Virus record (IMG/VR): IMGVR_UViG_2690316278_000014
Source of the DNA: a virus
Lineage: Duplodnaviria; Heunggongvirae; Uroviricota; Caudoviricetes
Strand: one strand, 5' to 3'
DNA length: 13,245 bases
Shown here: positions 294 to 5,458 of the stretch, piece by piece
Position numbering within the stretch: the first letter of the stretch is position 1
Layout: every line of letters starts with the position of its first letter
The notes under the pieces: model-generated
What the model was told of the DNA's origin: nothing
Database searches by the model: none
Seen by the model: the letters and a program-made list of their open reading frames with translations, nothing else
Position numbers and translations under genes: made by a program

Positions 294-471
294 AGTCCAC
301 AACTCCCAATAGACGGTGGGGTATCCTCACCGCTATAACTAACATCTCAACATTAAGATTTATAAGGTCTTCATTAAAGTACTCCCCCTTTCGTACCTCC
401 TATATAAATAGAGGAAGTAATATATATCACCATCGTAGGTGTTAAATTCCATTCTTATCATCTCGTAAACC

Positions 472-511
472 CTATAGTGGGTTAGTAGTTCTAACCCTCA
501 ATCTATAGTGG
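472..511. repeat. Direct repeat CTATAGTGG (472-480 and 503-511) flanking an inverted repeat GGGTTAG-tagtt-CTAACCC (479-497)
   Basis: Read directly in the convergent intergenic region between the + ORF ending at 293 and the - gene ending at 550. No downstream T-tract on either strand, so not a canonical intrinsic terminator. Confidence 0.5.
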
Positions 512-549
512 CATCTAACATTTACCTTACATTCCAAAAAATATTATTC

Positions 550-1982
550 TTAAGTCTTTTTATCTTGCTTAAGTAATGCAATGAGTCTGTGAGAGTTAGG
601 GATTTTATGTTCATTCCCCTCCACATCTAAAATAGTTATATCTTCTAAATGACAAATATCACATTCATTATCTATCGTGACTAAGTCTGAGCTTACCAAT
701 TCAAATTTTTTTCTTTGCTTTTCTTTAATAACAATGCTCTCTTTTGGAGATGAATGGCTCCTAATGCCTTTTTCATAATGGCAAAGCATCCCTTCCAAAA
801 CTGCATCACGCCTACCAACATTGATCACTATCACCTCGATTTTATAAGGTTCCTCATCAAAAGACTCGTAGACGAGGTCAGCTGTTATTTTTAGCCTTGA
901 TCTATCATGCCATGCTGCCCTACCGGAGAAGTATAAGGAAGTACATGCAANNNNNNNNNNNNNNNNNNNNNNNNNNNNNNNNNNNNNNNNNNNNNNNNNN
1001 NNNNNNNNNNNNNNNNNNNNNNNNNNNNNNNNNNNNNNNNNNNNNNNNNNNNNNNNNNNNNNNNNNNNNNNNNNNNNNNNNNNNNNNNNNNNNNNNNNNN
1101 NNNNNNNNNNNNNNNNNNNNNNNNNNNNNNNNNNNNNNNNNNNNNNNNNNNNNNNNNNNNNNNNNNNNNNNNNNNNNNNNNNNNNNNNNNNNNNNNNNNN
1201 NNNNNNNNNNNNNNNNNNNNNNNNNNNNNNNNNNNNNNNNNNNNNNNNNNNNNNNNNNNNNNNNNNNNNNNNNNNNNNNNNNNNNNNNNNNNNNNNNNNN
1301 NNNNNNNNNNNNNNNNNNNNNNNNNNNNNNNNNNNNNNNNNNNNNNNNNNNNNNNNNNNNNNNNNNNNNNNNNNNNNNNNNNNNNNNNNNNNNNNNNNNN
1401 NNNNNNNNNNNNNNNNNNNNNNNNNNNNNNNNNNNNNNNNNNNNNNNNNNNNNNNNNNNNNNNNNNNNNNNNNNNNNNNNNNNNNNNNNNNNNNNAAGCC
1501 TGTCGTGCTTTTGGATCACGCTCGTAGGAGTTTACTGTAACTTGCTTTTTTGCACCCTCAGCGTAGTTTTCAGGTGAGGTAATTTCATCTGGAAATGGAT
1601 TAGGTAAAAAGTCTGCATACCAAACTGTTCCTTCTTTCCGAAGGTAACGTTTTTCAAGTTTTGGAGTGAACCGTTTGATAACAGCTACATCTCTATTCTC
1701 ATCGTTTCGTCCCTGCTCCATATCAAACGTGTAAAGCTCATAACCTTCAGCTATCAATTGAATGTGTTCAATAGCTTGAATATATCCAAGATTTTTTCTT
1801 TCCTTTCCCTCCACAACTTTGGTTTTCCACCGCTCCCTCAGAATGACTGATCTTTCTTGCTCTTTTTGTACATCCCATGCACCAAAGATAACCATTTTCT
1901 TGTCGTGGTTCACAAATGACCAACTCCAAGTCCAGTTACTACAAGTAGCACCATGCGACTGGATGAATTGTTTTCTGTTCAT
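550..1982 (-). CDS. Hypothetical protein, possibly about 477 aa: Trp-rich N-terminal region plus C-terminal HNH-like (His-Me finger) signature. Interior 951-1495 is masked, so this may instead be two adjacent genes (1496..1982 and 550..950)
   Basis: ATG at 1980-1982 preceded by AGAGAGGGA about 5 nt upstream. N-terminal 162 aa (MNRKQFIQSHGATCSNWTWSWSFVNHDKKMVIFGAWDV...) is open to the mask. Below the mask a different frame is open from 950 to the TAA at 550-552 (133 codons) and contains CHYEKG ... SHSSP ... NECDICH ... EGNEHKIPNSH. The frame change across the mask is uninformative because N-run lengths are unreliable. Confidence 0.5.
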
Positions 1983-2354
1983 GGTATCCCTCTCTTAATT
2001 CCCTCTTTGTACACAAAAAATGCCTACTTGATCCAGTACTTTATGTAGCTATCCAATAGCATCATAGTAGTGGAAATGACCAGAGCGAGAGTTGTGGAAC
2101 TGGCGGGGCATGTCGTACTTACCAATTCACTTTAGGTACTTCATTTGCTGTACTAACATCTATCGAGCAAAGCGAGTAGTAACGCCTTGCGGGTTTTCGA
2201 GTACTGGCGAGAAAAACGCAACGTTACTAACCAATACTACGAGGAGTTCACGACGAGTAGTATTCGTGACGCAAGTCACAGTTTCTTGGAATACTGATAG
2301 AGAAAGAAATACATGGAATGAAATGGAATGGATTTCGTATCTCTATACTTAGTT

Positions 2355-2436
2355 GCCGTATTGATGGTAAATAGCGGGTTTCAGGGGCTTTTTTTGCCGT
2401 ATTACGGCATACATCCATGCCGTAATATGCCGTAAT
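2355..2436. repeat. Cluster of five GCCGTA(A/T)T motifs, including a 13-bp palindrome GCCGTAtTACGGC (2396-2408) and a tandem 10-mer ATGCCGTAAT x2 (2417-2436)
   Basis: Copies at 2355-2362, 2396-2403, 2401-2408 (inverted), 2419-2426 and 2429-2436. Lies immediately 3' of the 153-aa gene (stop at 2446-2448) and about 400 bp 5' of the 550..1982 gene. Confidence 0.6.
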
Positions 2437-2445
2437 AAGTTACAA

Positions 2446-2907
2446 TTAACGCAAGCCCTTTAAGTACTCGATCATGTCATCAATAAAGTCACCTTGTTTT
2501 TGTAGTTCCAATAGTTTACCAAACTCTTTATATGTTAGTGTTCTTTGTCCATATACTGGTGCTGGCAGTGCGTTTGGGTGTGCCAACATATACTGCTCTA
2601 TTCGTTTTGCTGCATCCGTGATCGCTGCCCCATAGTACCTGATCATACGTTCTTTTACTTGTTTCTTATTCTGTTGTACTTTAATAGCATTGATAGTATT
2701 GAATAGTAAATCATTCCGTAATTCATCTTCATTACTCAATACTGCAAACACATCATATACACTAATCTTATCTCTCACTTTAAGTTTAGCTACTGAGTCC
2801 TTCATGATGTTCTTGATGTCTTCGCATGGGATATCTTTATATAGCTTGTACTGGCTAATTAGTGCTTTTATGTTTCTGTTATCAAAAGTTGAATAGGTTT
2901 TTGCCAT
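2446..2907 (-). CDS. Hypothetical protein, 153 aa; no recognisable domain
   Basis: ATG at 2905-2907 with AGGA about 9 nt upstream on the - strand; complete ORF with TAA at 2446-2448. Protein begins MAKTYSTFDNRNIKALISQYKLYKD. Confidence 0.55.
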   Translation of the reverse strand: MAKTYSTFDNRNIKALISQYKLYKDIPCEDIKNIMKDSVAKLKVRDKISVYDVFAVLSNEDELRNDLLFNTINAIKVQQNKKQVKERMIRYYGAAITDAAKRIEQYMLAHPNALPAPVYGQRTLTYKEFGKLLELQKQGDFIDDMIEYLKGLR

Positions 2908-3001
2908 GATAAATAATCCTGTATAAATTAATTAATCGTGACCCGTAGTGATTACAGGCCATTTAATAAGTTTGGCTTCATTGCCATTGAGTTTTGAATA
3001 G

Positions 3002-3030
3002 ATGCCAGTACTGGAATACTGGCATTTTTT
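3002..3030 (+). terminator. Terminator-like hairpin ATGCCAGTA-ctggaa-TACTGGCAT followed by T5-6, contains the perfect palindrome CCAGTACTGG; function uncertain (terminator shape only in + orientation, or an operator-like palindrome)
   Basis: 9-bp stem at 3002-3010 / 3017-3025, T-run 3026-3030. Overlaps the stop codon of the HNH gene (3029-3031) and lies about 95 nt upstream of the 153-aa gene start. No convincing + strand gene upstream. Confidence 0.3.
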
Positions 3031-3583
3031 ATGGTTTACGTTGAATGGTTAGGCTTTGTATTCTTTGTCTTTGCTTATTCGTAAGATATGTTGTGTACCA
3101 TTTTGAATAGGTAGTACCTTTGAATAACTTACCTATATTCTGAGGGCAAATATTAATACCAGTTTGATTTAAAAACCATTTAGTGATTGCATATTGAGAT
3201 AATTGTCCTTTAAGGTACTCTCCAACAATCATTAACCATTGCTTTAGAGTAAGCTTTTGAGTACGAGTACCTTTATGCTTTCTATTGGAATTATTAACCT
3301 TCTGAGTTACCCAACGTAAATTTTTTGCTTTGTTATTCATTTTATCGCGGTCGATATGATCTACAGTGTATCTTCCTCCAATGGGTTTAGCACCATTGAA
3401 TAAAGTACAAACCAAAACATGTACATATAGTGATTTGCCATTAATAGAAACTTTTTTGTATCCATTAGATGGGTTTTTCGTAGCTATATACTGTTTTGTT
3501 TTATCATTGTAAACATCGCCATTTTCAGATACGTAGTAATGTTTTGAATTTGGAATTAATCTCCAAGTGATTTTAGGGTTCAT
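3029..3583 (-). CDS. HNH homing-endonuclease-like protein (NUMOD4-type N-terminus plus HNH_3-type core), 184 aa
   Basis: ATG at 3581-3583 with AAGGA about 8 nt upstream. N-terminus WRLIPNSKHYYVSENGDVYN matches the NUMOD4 pattern (Y-x-VS-x-x-G-x-V) and YVHVLVCTLFNGAKPIGGRYTVDHIDRDKMNNKAKNLRWVTQKVN matches the HNH_3 core (HR-L/V ... V-N/D-H-I/K-D ... NN ... NL-x-W-V-T). The basic C-terminal tail is probably DNA-binding. Confidence 0.75.
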   Translation of the reverse strand: MNPKITWRLIPNSKHYYVSENGDVYNDKTKQYIATKNPSNGYKKVSINGKSLYVHVLVCTLFNGAKPIGGRYTVDHIDRDKMNNKAKNLRWVTQKVNNSNRKHKGTRTQKLTLKQWLMIVGEYLKGQLSQYAITKWFLNQTGINICPQNIGKLFKGTTYSKWYTTYLTNKQRQRIQSLTIQRKP

Positions 3584-3637
3584 ATCAAACGTCCTTGTTG
3601 TTATCGCGTCACTCCATGTGATCGCGTCTGCTACTAC

Positions 3638-3946
3638 TTAGAGGCCAGTAGCATTTAGCCTATATTCATCCCTCGCCTTCTCACATACGATTAGCAAACG
3701 GTTTAAACATTCCTTATGTTCATCTTCAGCAGCCAGTACAAACATTACCATTGGTAATCCGTCGATTAGGTAATTTCCATTCCATGTAATAGTACCTAAT
3801 ACTTCTGGATCACCAATTCGTTCATAATGTGCTTCTAATGAACCTTCCTGATACTTCACACAATAGAAATAGTGATAATCCATATCCCCTACTATTGTGT
3901 AATCATCAAAATATTGTACTAAATCAAAGTCATTCTTCATTACCAC
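3638..3946 (-). CDS. Hypothetical protein, 102 aa, overlapping the end of the upstream RHH-like gene; possible partner of a two-gene module
   Basis: Complete ORF (MVMKNDFDLVQYFDDYTIVGDMDYHYFYCVKYQEG...), TAA at 3638-3640. Start ATG at 3944-3946 or 3938-3940, both overlapping the upstream gene, whose stop is at 3930-3932. Confidence 0.5.
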   Translation of the reverse strand: MVMKNDFDLVQYFDDYTIVGDMDYHYFYCVKYQEGSLEAHYERIGDPEVLGTITWNGNYLIDGLPMVMFVLAAEDEHKECLNRLLIVCEKARDEYRLNATGL

Positions 3947-4115
3947 CGCCCTGTAAAATCATGTACTGATTAATTAAGTACTGAACACAGGCTGATAATG
4001 AATCTTTCTGTACCTTCCCACTACTAATTAGCTGGTTAAGTACAAGTACTTGATCGTCATTAAGACGTGCGGTTACTACATGATGTTTGCGTTCCTTTAA
4101 AGTTACTTTTTTCAT
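3930..4115 (-). CDS. Small ribbon-helix-helix-like (CopG/Arc/MobC-type) DNA-binding protein, 61 aa; candidate autoregulator or antitoxin-like component
   Basis: ATG at 4113-4115 with AAGGA about 7 nt upstream. Sequence HVVTARLNDDQVLVLNQLISSGKVQKDSLSACVQYLI has the beta-strand / helix / helix periodicity of RHH proteins. Assignment by pattern only. Confidence 0.5.
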   Translation of the reverse strand: MKKVTLKERKHHVVTARLNDDQVLVLNQLISSGKVQKDSLSACVQYLINQYMILQGGGNEE

Positions 4116-4132
4116 TTCTATATCCTTATAGG

Positions 4133-4152
4133 TGTATTTGTATACTGTATTT
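4133..4152 (-). promoter_or_regulatory. Operator-like element TGTATTT-GTATAC-TGTATTT immediately upstream of the RHH gene ribosome-binding site
   Basis: Two 7-bp direct repeats separated by the palindromic hexamer GTATAC, 18-37 nt upstream of the ATG at 4115. RHH regulators commonly bind such short repeats in their own promoters (inference). Confidence 0.3.
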
Positions 4153-4164
4153 ATAAATCCAAAT

Positions 4165-4192
4165 TAAAAAGATACCTCTCTCGCAAGAGAGG
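4165..4192 (-). terminator. Rho-independent terminator-like hairpin on the - strand (stem CCUCUCU / AGAGAGG, UGCG tetraloop, then UAUCUUUUUAAUUU)
   Basis: 7-bp stem at 4175-4181 / 4186-4192 with a 4-nt loop; on the - strand it is followed by a U-rich tract (4165-4174). Lies about 140 nt downstream of the 4332..5130 gene and about 60 nt upstream of the RHH gene, suggesting separate transcription units. Confidence 0.45.
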
Positions 4193-4331
4193 CAATCTTA
4201 ATTAAAAAGGAAATTTATTGTCGCTATATTATTTATGTTCAAAGCTGGAGCGGAAGGCAAAACGCATTATCGTTCTGATACTATTAGTATAGCACCAAAA
4301 CTTTTAGCGTTTCATTTTTCTTACTACGTAT

Positions 4332-5130
4332 TTATTTATCGATTTGATTTTTAATGGGGAAAGCAATAGTACTAAAATCATAGATAAAAACATGAGCANN
4401 NNNNNNNNNNNNNNNNNNNNNNNNNNNNNNNNNNNNNNNNNNNNNNNNNNNNNNNNNNNNNNNNNNNNNNNNNNNNNNNNNNNNNNNNNNNNNNNNNNNN
4501 NNNNNNNNNNNNNNNNNNNNNNNNNNNNNNNNNNNNNNNNNNNNNNNNNNNNNNNNNNNNNNNNNNNNNNNNNNNNNNNNNNNNNNNNNNNNNNNNNNNN
4601 NNNNNNNNNNNNNNNNNNNNNNNNNNNNNNNNNNNNNNNNNNNNNNNNNNNNNNNNNNNNNNNNNNNNNNNNNNNNNNNNNNNNNNNNNNNNNNNNNNNN
4701 NNNNNNNNNNNNNNNNNNNNNNNNNNNNNNNNNNNNNNNNNNNNNNNNNNNNNNNNNNNNNNNNNNNNNNNNNNNNNNNNNNNNNNNNNNNNNNNNNNNN
4801 NNNNNNNNNNNNNNNNNNNNNNNNNNNNNNNNNNNNNNNNNNNNNNNNNNNNNNNNNNNNNNNNNNNNNNNNNNNNNNNNNNNNNNNNNNNNNNNNNNNN
4901 NNNNNNNNNNNNNNNNNNNNNNNNNNNNNNNNNNNNNNNNNNNNNNNNNNNNNNNNNNNNNNNNNNNNNNNNNNNNNNNNNNNNNNNNNNNNNNNNNNNN
5001 NNNNNNNNNNNNNNNNNNNNNNNNNNNNNNNNNNNNNNNNNNNNNNNNNNNNNNNNNNNNNNNNNNNNTTTTCTTTTTTTGCTTTATTTTCTTTCTTACG
5101 CATTTTGGCAATCCTCTCTTTAGAATTCAT
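4332..5130 (-). CDS. Hypothetical protein with lysine-rich N-terminus (MNSKERIAKMRKKENKAKKE...); interior 4399-5068 masked
   Basis: ATG at 5128-5130 with AGGAG upstream on the - strand. The visible 3' end in the protein-like frame (...AHVFIYDFSTIAFPIKNQIDK) stops at TAA 4332-4334. The 5' and 3' visible parts are in different frames across the N-run, so length and continuity are unverified. Confidence 0.4.
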
Positions 5131-5249
5131 CTCATGGTTTCATCGCTCCTATTCGTTAGTGAATGACGCTATGGTACTGGTTTAACGTTGAAANNNNNNN
5201 NNNNNNNNNNNNNNNNNACGTTGAAAAGTCAAAAAAGTTAATTTTACCC

Positions 5250-5278
5250 TTGACTATTCTAACACACGCTGATATAAA
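5250..5278 (+). promoter_or_regulatory. Sigma70-like promoter TTGACT-17 bp-TATAAA on the + strand, pointing antisense into the 3' end of the recombinase gene
   Basis: TTGACT at 5250-5255, 17-nt spacer, TATAAA at 5273-5278. An inverted copy AGTCAA sits at 5227-5232. No + strand ORF follows, so a small or antisense RNA is possible but unproven. Confidence 0.3.
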
Positions 5279-5458
5279 TGATTTGCTGTATTTTGCACGG
5301 AAATCTTAAACCCATCGGGTGCGTAGTTATATCCAAAATTCATAATCCCTCTTTTATTGCTCTATCTACAATGCCGTTAGATTTCGACATCGTAGATATA
5401 TTGTTCAAATATTAACTCGCATAATTCATTCTACAAGACCATAAATTCTCATTAGCTT

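Follow-up and report, generated by a model that had tools for sequence, protein, structure and literature searches.

The repeats that lie directly downstream of a 153-aa gene in a Shigella sonnei/E. coli island are probably the cognate binding sites of the protein family to which that gene belongs, judging from the way in which the repeat sequence changes with the protein. The gene, the repeats and a conserved non-coding core together form a larger, previously undescribed cis/trans module. Tentatively, we favour a model in which the 153-aa protein recognizes the repeats and the module serves as the replication origin of the island. The window (the whole stretch of DNA that was analysed, 13,245 nt) covers an island that lies beside yeaG/yeaH/yeaI. 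We infer binding by the 153-aa protein, the origin function and its mechanism from comparison of this DNA with its relatives.

On the minus strand the order of genes in the window is a 644-aa large serine recombinase, three small genes, a 184-aa HNH_3/NUMOD4 gene and the 153-aa gene, followed by the intergenic region that contains the repeats, an HNH gene and further cargo (Table 1). Eleven masked stretches of N take up 3,647 of the 13,245 bases, and several long open reading frames, such as those at 891–1982, 4332–5130 and 9745–11670, are artefactual because N was translated. An earlier note on this DNA had placed the repeats between the 153-aa gene and a nuclease candidate. They do adjoin the 153-aa gene, but the '363-aa nuclease' was a product of the masking and is really a 247-aa HNH protein. 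The C-terminal half of this protein resembles type IV methyl-directed restriction enzymes. The DNA encoding its N-terminal 160 amino acids is ~65% identical to HNH genes on enterobacterial plasmids; the Yersinia plasmid gene that was inspected encodes 180 amino acids and adjoins repA on an IncFII plasmid (compared locus L001, 2928–3470). In several relatives the slot of the 184-aa gene is occupied by a gene of 166–188 aa, and HNH was confirmed in L025, L016 and L019.

Table 1. Features of the window and of related loci, with the repeat motif of each protein lineage. Positions are those of the window unless a locus is named.
Feature	Position or loci	Strand	Remarks
N runs	951–1495, 4399–5068, 7372–7616, 7703–8088, 9845–10376, 11060–11644, 12725–13234		and four shorter runs
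First cargo gene, 247-aa HNH protein	1239–1982	−	951–1495 masked
Intergenic region	1983–2445		463 nt, between the 153-aa gene and the 247-aa HNH gene
Conserved core	2128–2230		~110 nt, common to all lineages; hairpin at 2177–2229
Core loop TTTCGAGTAC-TG-GCGAGAAAAACGCAA	2195–2221		inside hairpin 2177–2229
Two small hairpins	2233–2279		the second is GTGAC-GCAA-GTCAC
Imperfect hairpin	2297–2346		z = −4.5 on the plus strand; loop holds the ATGGAATG tandem (2311–2330)
Second decamer pair, ACATGGAATG / AAATGGAATG	2311–2330		
Array motif form GCCGTAAT	within 2340–2445		
Isolated distal site TTGCCGTATTG	2353–2363	unspecified	from motif count and relatives; contains GCCGTATT at 2355–2362
T7 tract	2389–2395		A7 on the gene strand; separates proximal from distal sites
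13-bp palindrome GCCGTATTACGGC	2396–2408		two overlapping inverted half-sites (feature listed as 2396–2411)
Two tandem ATGCCGTAAT	2417–2436		phasing 10 bp; gene strand reads ATTACGGCAT twice
153-aa protein gene	2446–2907	−	candidate cognate DNA-binding partner of the repeats
184-aa HNH_3/NUMOD4 homing-endonuclease-like gene	3029–3583	−	immediately upstream of the 153-aa gene
DUF2188 gene	L059 25442–25663; L060 10689–10916; L016 13783–14004		
Motif of lineage A, TACGGCA	the window		
Motif of lineage B, ACGGTTA	L013, L029, L056		
Motif of lineage C, TTAGC[CA]C	L027, L032, L038		
Motif of lineage D, AATTAGT	L030, L031, L036, L041		
Motif of lineage E, T[TC]TGCGA	L012, L052, L057		
Motif of lineage F, AATT[AT]CGAC	L015, L024, L033, L044		

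The cluster had been described as five copies of an 8-mer in 82 bp, arranged as a single copy, a palindrome and a tandem pair, and all five were found where they had been placed. Over the whole window, GCCGTAWT occurs six times against an expectation of 0.56 ± 0.78 from 200 dinucleotide-preserving shuffles, none of which attained six copies. Five of the six are packed into 2355–2436, and the sixth, at 8652 inside yeaG, is probably due to chance. The array begins 10 nt past the stop codon of the 153-aa gene and contains a perfect 12-bp inverted repeat (2400–2411 pairs with 2426–2437); the proximal cluster is able to fold as a 12- to 13-bp hairpin or cruciform (z = −4.3/−3.4; hairpin 2398–2429, z = −4.3). 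In this lineage 33 nt separate the distal from the proximal sites, a spacer that is A/T-rich only at the T7 run. When the unmasked 20-kb S. sonnei locus (L002) was searched with up to one mismatch, the exact 10-mer on the gene strand was confined to this intergenic region; the 7-mer TACGGCA is present in that locus in nine copies (2.1 expected), five of which lie in the same region. As the sites are absent elsewhere in the 20-kb locus, they do not represent a dispersed regulon. Visual inspection revealed no DnaA box, and GC skew gave no signal.

The intergenic region as a whole folds better than shuffled sequences (z = −2.6/−2.1). Among the S. sonnei and E. coli copies it is nearly invariant apart from two length changes and one point substitution. 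The A/T tract at 2389–2395 differs in length among strains, being A7 or A6 (A6 in L003), and a TCCAT/ATGGA pentamer run (2311–2335) has one extra unit in some S. sonnei assemblies (+5 nt in L006). This second run bears on the other tandem decamer to which the earlier note had drawn attention. The decamer pair is present, but it does not form an operator-like array; it is a slippage-prone tract within a conserved hairpin loop, because the copy number of the pentamer is polymorphic among strains. Between the window and L019, the distal site and hairpin are 92% identical and the neighbouring gene only 80.6%, so that in this pair the non-coding segment is better conserved than the adjoining 153-aa gene.

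A distant blastn search with the intergenic region matched 31 of 5,426 complete E. coli genomes. In these 31 genomes only the segment corresponding to 2109–2236 of the window was matched, at 76–88% identity and always in unannotated DNA, and the match always adjoined a hypothetical gene of ~155–175 aa within an integrase-bearing island. The proteins encoded beside these matches align with the 153-aa protein from end to end, at 14–23% identity. Located in the hairpin loop of this core is the stretch TTCGAGTAC-N1-3-GCGAGAAAAA-N0-1-CGC, whose identity across relatives holds by construction of the search; pattern scans with it recovered nine viral and 22 metagenome contigs and, among species-representative genomes, five loci in four genomes (Kluyvera, Mangrovibacter, Dryocola and two loci in one Serratia). 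The loop as a whole reads TTTCGAGTAC-N1-3-GCGAGAAAAACGC across the relatives. A family gene of 121–191 aa ends 225–451 nt from the core in all 27 loci with enough flank, the distance being 225–311 nt in 26 of them. Variable cargo starts at the left edge of the core. In the metagenome contig Ga0209461_10000015 (L038), ~21 tandem copies of the 9-mer AAGAATAAA at ~6300–6500 form an insertion of ~190 nt that separates the distal site from the core-side hairpins and brings the gene-to-core distance to 451 nt.

The core is non-coding, since indels of 1–3 nt fall inside it. It folds as a three-tier hairpin (2177–2229) in which the stems are variable and partly covarying and the sequence of the loop is invariant. 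RNAalifold on a mixed alignment of 29 sequences returned just five invariant pairs. Folding is about equally good on either strand; the plus strand has 8 G.T pairs and 10 mismatches and the minus strand 1 and 17, amounting to ~4 independent events. Blastn of 1496–4398 gave no match at all in phages, and the plasmids matched only the HNH gene. Given that no core match exists in the phage and plasmid collections, the core copies no oriT or cos site represented in them.

The 153-aa protein gave no match in Pfam, NCBIfam or PHROG, and no PDB entry was matched by sequence or fold, nor was there any likeness to Q21, Q-lambda or small terminases. Its sole PADLOC match, to Cas13a at E = 0.005, is marginal and implausible. 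Single-protein searches, whether k-mer-indexed or exhaustive, returned close relatives only. A profile search found 67 relatives, all of them annotated as hypothetical and none with a Pfam match, and every relative with a named source comes from the Enterobacterales. The AF2 model, built on a 35-sequence alignment, is all-helical with a pLDDT of 85.7, and in BFVD its only fold relatives are uncharacterised proteins of the Klebsiella jumbo phage RaK2 and of Pseudomonas phages. Two lineages of the family begin with an AT-hook-like KKRGRKPK, and DNA binding by this candidate is plausible. The protein is identical in S. sonnei 53G and many other assemblies, and 768 blocks of the collection record it. 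A tblastn search with two family lineages gave no match in phages; protein and core are both absent from 50,697 phage records (INPHARED) and 72,556 plasmids.

Between the gene and the core lies a short motif, in direct and inverted copies, that differs from one protein lineage to the next. There are two to five proximal copies per lineage, starting at or within the stop codon or the 3′ end of the gene, and in most lineages a single distal copy follows past a spacer of 30–100 bp, usually with a T/A run. In lineages B–D the spacer is ~25–31% GC by manual count. The orientations of the sites are mixed. A count matrix of six lineages by six motifs is block-diagonal with essentially no cross-occurrence; as the sequences compared had also served to define the motifs, this lack of cross-occurrence alone is independent evidence. 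The outlier lineage L034 has no match to any of the six, and in two lineage-E loci the match to the E pattern is weak or missing. L019, with 80% protein identity, keeps the motif of the window but has an altered copy number and altered spacers. The sites are degenerate in L016, a decayed island whose integrase is a 63-aa remnant and whose family gene is annotated with no more than 119 aa. The 153-aa protein, one of two binders that the earlier note had named, is the prime candidate because the sequence of the array changes with the lineage of the adjacent protein. Related elements, in which the earlier note had proposed to search for the motif, thus always hold a repeat array at the same position, with a sequence that varies with the protein lineage. 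The suggestion that the repeats are iterons or operators for a dimeric regulator is partly supported and seems right in kind: they behave as protein recognition sites would, whether as an operator, an iteron origin or another cis site.

The island family is widespread in Shigella sonnei and is found also in E. coli, Enterobacter, Klebsiella, Serratia and Kluyvera. The integrase of the islands is either a large serine or a tyrosine enzyme; some islands have a lambda-like head and packaging module and others defence-type cargo only. Intact relatives contain a head module in lambda order, TerS-TerL-head–tail joining protein (W)-portal-protease/MCP fusion, on the same strand as the family gene, as in L025 and AREA_C483, where the genes from TerS to MCP share that strand. 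The AREA_C483 element of E. coli spans the yeaG–mipA gap (~25 kb); its terS/terL is disrupted by an IS, and it also encodes a lysozyme-like protein, a methyltransferase and DUF2188. At ffs in E. coli, the KSC9-type island measures only 9.9 kb, is bounded by 22-nt att direct repeats and has retained the module. A small DUF2188 gene lies at the far end of three module islands, just inside the chromosomal flank, and may serve as another marker of the family's backbone.

PICIs and cfPICIs are recognized by an integrase, an AlpA, MerR or Stl regulator, a primase-replicase and TerS, and cfPICIs additionally have TerL, portal, capsid and connector genes, tail and holin genes being absent (PMC10085698). 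Neither AlpA nor a primase-replicase was detected in the elements studied here, which look like satellites related to cfPICI. The markers of PIMEs are int, alpA, repA and trbJ/trbL (bioRxiv 10.64898/2026.01.12.698999); PIME identity was ruled out, the island being without repA, trbJ or trbL. The literature on PIMEs and on small serine recombinases has no description of this module, and a study of E. coli defence islands names neither yeaG nor ffs as a site.

Several other properties of the islands were observed. AGTACT occurs 15 times in the window (2.0 expected) and is strongly over-represented throughout the island (378–7156 of the window; 5700–20462 of L002). In L002 there are 36 copies in the island part and none in the 5.7-kb chromosomal flank, and the density of GTAC falls from ~10 per kb in the island to 1–2 per kb in the flank. 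It is unusual for a palindrome to be over-represented, and AGTACT might be a dispersed binding or modification motif. The core and the att arms of the KSC9 island both contain CAGTACTG. That island (L060) also contains an internal inverted copy of its joined ends, equivalent to an attP-like junction: 2452–2590 is the reverse complement of 1223–1361, and 2569–2706 that of 11017–11154. Owing to this internal copy, the integrase gene is bracketed by 139-nt inverted repeats. A long run of GGCTGT hexamers with 12-nt spacing (6690–6903) lies in a 578-aa hypothetical cargo gene of the same island.

An origin of replication would use the components of the module in the order in which they occur: family gene, proximal sites (two direct at 10-bp phasing plus inverted), A/T tract, distal site, hairpins and core. 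We propose that the 153-aa protein, as a dimer or oligomer, would bind its own iteron-like sites on both flanks of the A/T tract and that the bound protein would distort or open the DNA. Machinery shared by all lineages, for which host or helper priming or a nickase are candidates, would use the invariant hairpin core, probably as single-stranded DNA, and the lineage-specific sites would keep related islands from cross-reacting. This function is favoured because the layout resembles the SaPI/PICI ori and the non-coding ori of PLE, because no other replication gene is recognizable in the elements, because the module sits in the slot of the PICI pri-rep and ori, and because no promoter is predicted. 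The minimal 9.9-kb islands with intact att repeats, which retain the module, also argue for an origin. Against it, the protein has 153 amino acids only, no helicase, primase, winged-helix or Rep signature and no structural relative with a known function. The spacer of the window is short and barely A/T-rich, with a single site on its distal flank where the SaPI ori has two or more, and neither a DnaA box nor a GC-skew signal speaks for an origin. Furthermore, the ~190 nt of tandem 9-mers between distal site and core in L038 fit a transcribed leader better, and −10-like hexamers (TATAGT, TATAAT and TAAAAT) recur in the spacer of other lineages.

A more specific proposal, which we consider unlikely, is that the module represents a new type of replicon in an undescribed family of enterobacterial satellites. 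A protein of ~155 aa with a novel fold would read the iterons, and the hairpin core would be recognized in single-stranded form, perhaps by the neighbouring I-HmuI-like HNH nickase or by a helper factor that starts rolling-circle or primed replication. The satellites would have a serine or tyrosine integrase, a lambda-like head module or none, and a hot spot for defence cargo.

The main rival, possible if rather doubtful, is that the segment is instead a transcriptional control region, with the 153-aa protein acting as an activator, a repressor or a Q-like antiterminator at a promoter in the spacer. Minus-strand transcription dependent on the activator would then run through a hairpin/core leader into the cargo and, in elements of full size, on into terS-terL-portal-capsid. 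The position resembles that of lambda Q-qut-PR′, with late genes on the strand of the family gene, and a 10-bp inverted repeat with a 6-nt spacer resembles the operator of a dimer. The −10-like hexamers of most other lineages lie in the spacer with sites on both flanks, and the 190-nt insertion tolerated by L038 between distal site and core would suit this arrangement as well. However, a scan for sigma-70-type promoters predicted none in the region in any of four lineages (the window, L013, L030 and L057), no −35 element was seen, and the lineage of the window itself lacks a convincing −10. Cargo genes that immediately follow the module often lie on the other strand, the protein has no fold likeness to known regulators, and minimal islands without late genes retain the module; the slight excess of G.T over A.C, a weak indication, favours folding of the plus strand and not of the transcribed one. 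The more particular idea that the repeats control the downstream nuclease gene, as the earlier note had it, has lost ground: the downstream gene differs among relatives and can face the other way, the window and three relatives have no predicted promoter, and the repeats lie 373–454 nt upstream of the HNH start codon. A partition-like site, which had been offered as another option, is unlikely, no ParA/ParB-type gene having been found.

Another explanation is that the module is a packaging site comparable to cosB, in which the core would be the site of cleavage or initiation by a terminase that the whole family shares, and the 153-aa protein a specificity factor on the repeats. A distal site, a bendable spacer and at least two proximal sites beside a core parallel cosN-cosB, the relatives do encode the lambda-order head module, and minimal islands would require the cis site alone. 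This is nevertheless improbable. The module lies ~6 kb from terS, which cos normally abuts, and a bona fide TerS (phrog_57) is already present in the elements. Lambda cosN, GGGCGGCGACCT, is absent from the elements at up to two mismatches, the distance from the core to the sites is variable, and the protein has no fold likeness to small terminases. The absence of core and protein from the INPHARED phages means, in addition, that no phage site in that collection is copied.

Still less probable is a function at the RNA level, either as a 3′-UTR hairpin that stabilizes or terminates the mRNA of the 153-aa gene or as a small RNA gene. There is a strong hairpin right after the stop codon, the folding of the intergenic region beats that of shuffles, and the core hairpin has an invariant loop and covarying stems. 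On the gene strand, however, the hairpin is followed by A7 and not by a U-run, and the scan for intrinsic terminators found nothing at 2390–2445. A hairpin does not explain the direct tandems, the isolated distal copy or the tracking of the protein lineage by the motif, and no promoter was found. Rfam 15 had nothing at E ≤ 1 in the window and nothing at E ≤ 5 in the module of five relatives; a tRNA scan found none. Retrons, IS110 bridge RNAs and TnpB/IscB guide RNAs were dropped as candidates, there being no RT, DEDD or RuvC protein. Lastly, slippage does occur nearby (the length polymorphism of the pentamer and the A-tract, the 9-mer expansion of L038), but there is very little chance that the repeats are non-functional products of slippage or local duplication in AT-rich island DNA, given a motif enrichment far above chance, a motif conserved at 80% protein identity while spacers change, an architecture shared by independent lineages despite different motifs and a segment better conserved than the neighbouring gene.

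As a determinant of replication (or packaging), the module would define the backbone of a family of satellite-like islands. An uncharacterised protein family gains a testable function, for which the six lineages and six motifs are ready specificity controls. The invariant stretch of the core is a conserved DNA marker for finding such islands and marks the boundary of a cargo hot spot.

Parts of the module can be compared with two systems of lambda. In lambda cosB, R3 is followed by an IHF bend (I1) and by R2 and R1 next to cosN, and the sites are read by gpNu1. The islands share with it a lone site and, in the opposite orientation, a pair of sites, a bendable spacer, an adjacent conserved core and a small helical protein, here a candidate for binding, that is encoded beside the sites. 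Unlike cosB, the array is not beside terS, has no cosN, coexists with a separate TerS and adjoins a gene for a protein unlike small terminases. The lambda Q-qut-PR′ region comprises a small, diverse regulator gene and, directly behind it, the binding element, promoter and leader; a cargo hot spot and the late genes follow, all on one strand with the regulator. In the islands, as in the lambdoid Q-QBE/qut-PR′ modules, a small diverse gene is followed by a lineage-specific element and a conserved leader-like segment, upstream of a cargo hot spot and same-strand late genes. In contrast to those modules, neither a promoter nor a sigma-dependent pause element was identified, the protein has no likeness to the Q fold and the module persists without late genes.

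Closer to the proposed function is PLE of Vibrio cholerae, which has a large serine integrase and a non-coding region with several types of repeat that acts as ori; some of the repeats are semi-palindromic and adjoin a poly-A tract, and they are needed in cis along with a single protein of the island (PMC7145576). Like PLE, the island described here is of the satellite type, has a large serine integrase and contains a long non-coding region with several types of repeat, some of them semi-palindromic and beside a poly-A tract. The two differ in that the RepA of PLE is a RepA_N protein unrelated to the 153-aa family, in that the ori of PLE is not directly downstream of repA, and in their hosts and helper phages.

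The SaPI ori consists of short repeats just downstream of the initiator gene, in opposite orientations and cognate-specific, which flank an A/T-rich centre with at least two sites on each side (PMC9371898). In PICIs and cfPICIs, pri-rep and ori lie between the integrase and regulators and the accessory and packaging genes (PMC10085698). The module differs from these in its all-helical 153-aa protein, which has no detectable Rep homology, in its one distal site, and in the ~110-nt invariant hairpin core, which has no counterpart in the description of SaPI. It is like them in that short (5–10 bp) repeats in both orientations start right behind the stop codon of the putatively cognate gene and in most lineages flank a spacer, which is A/T-rich in lineages B–D but in the window only at the T7 run, in that the repeat sequence is specific to the protein of the element, as seen here in the co-variation, and in the position of the module, after the integrase and regulators and before the accessory and packaging genes.
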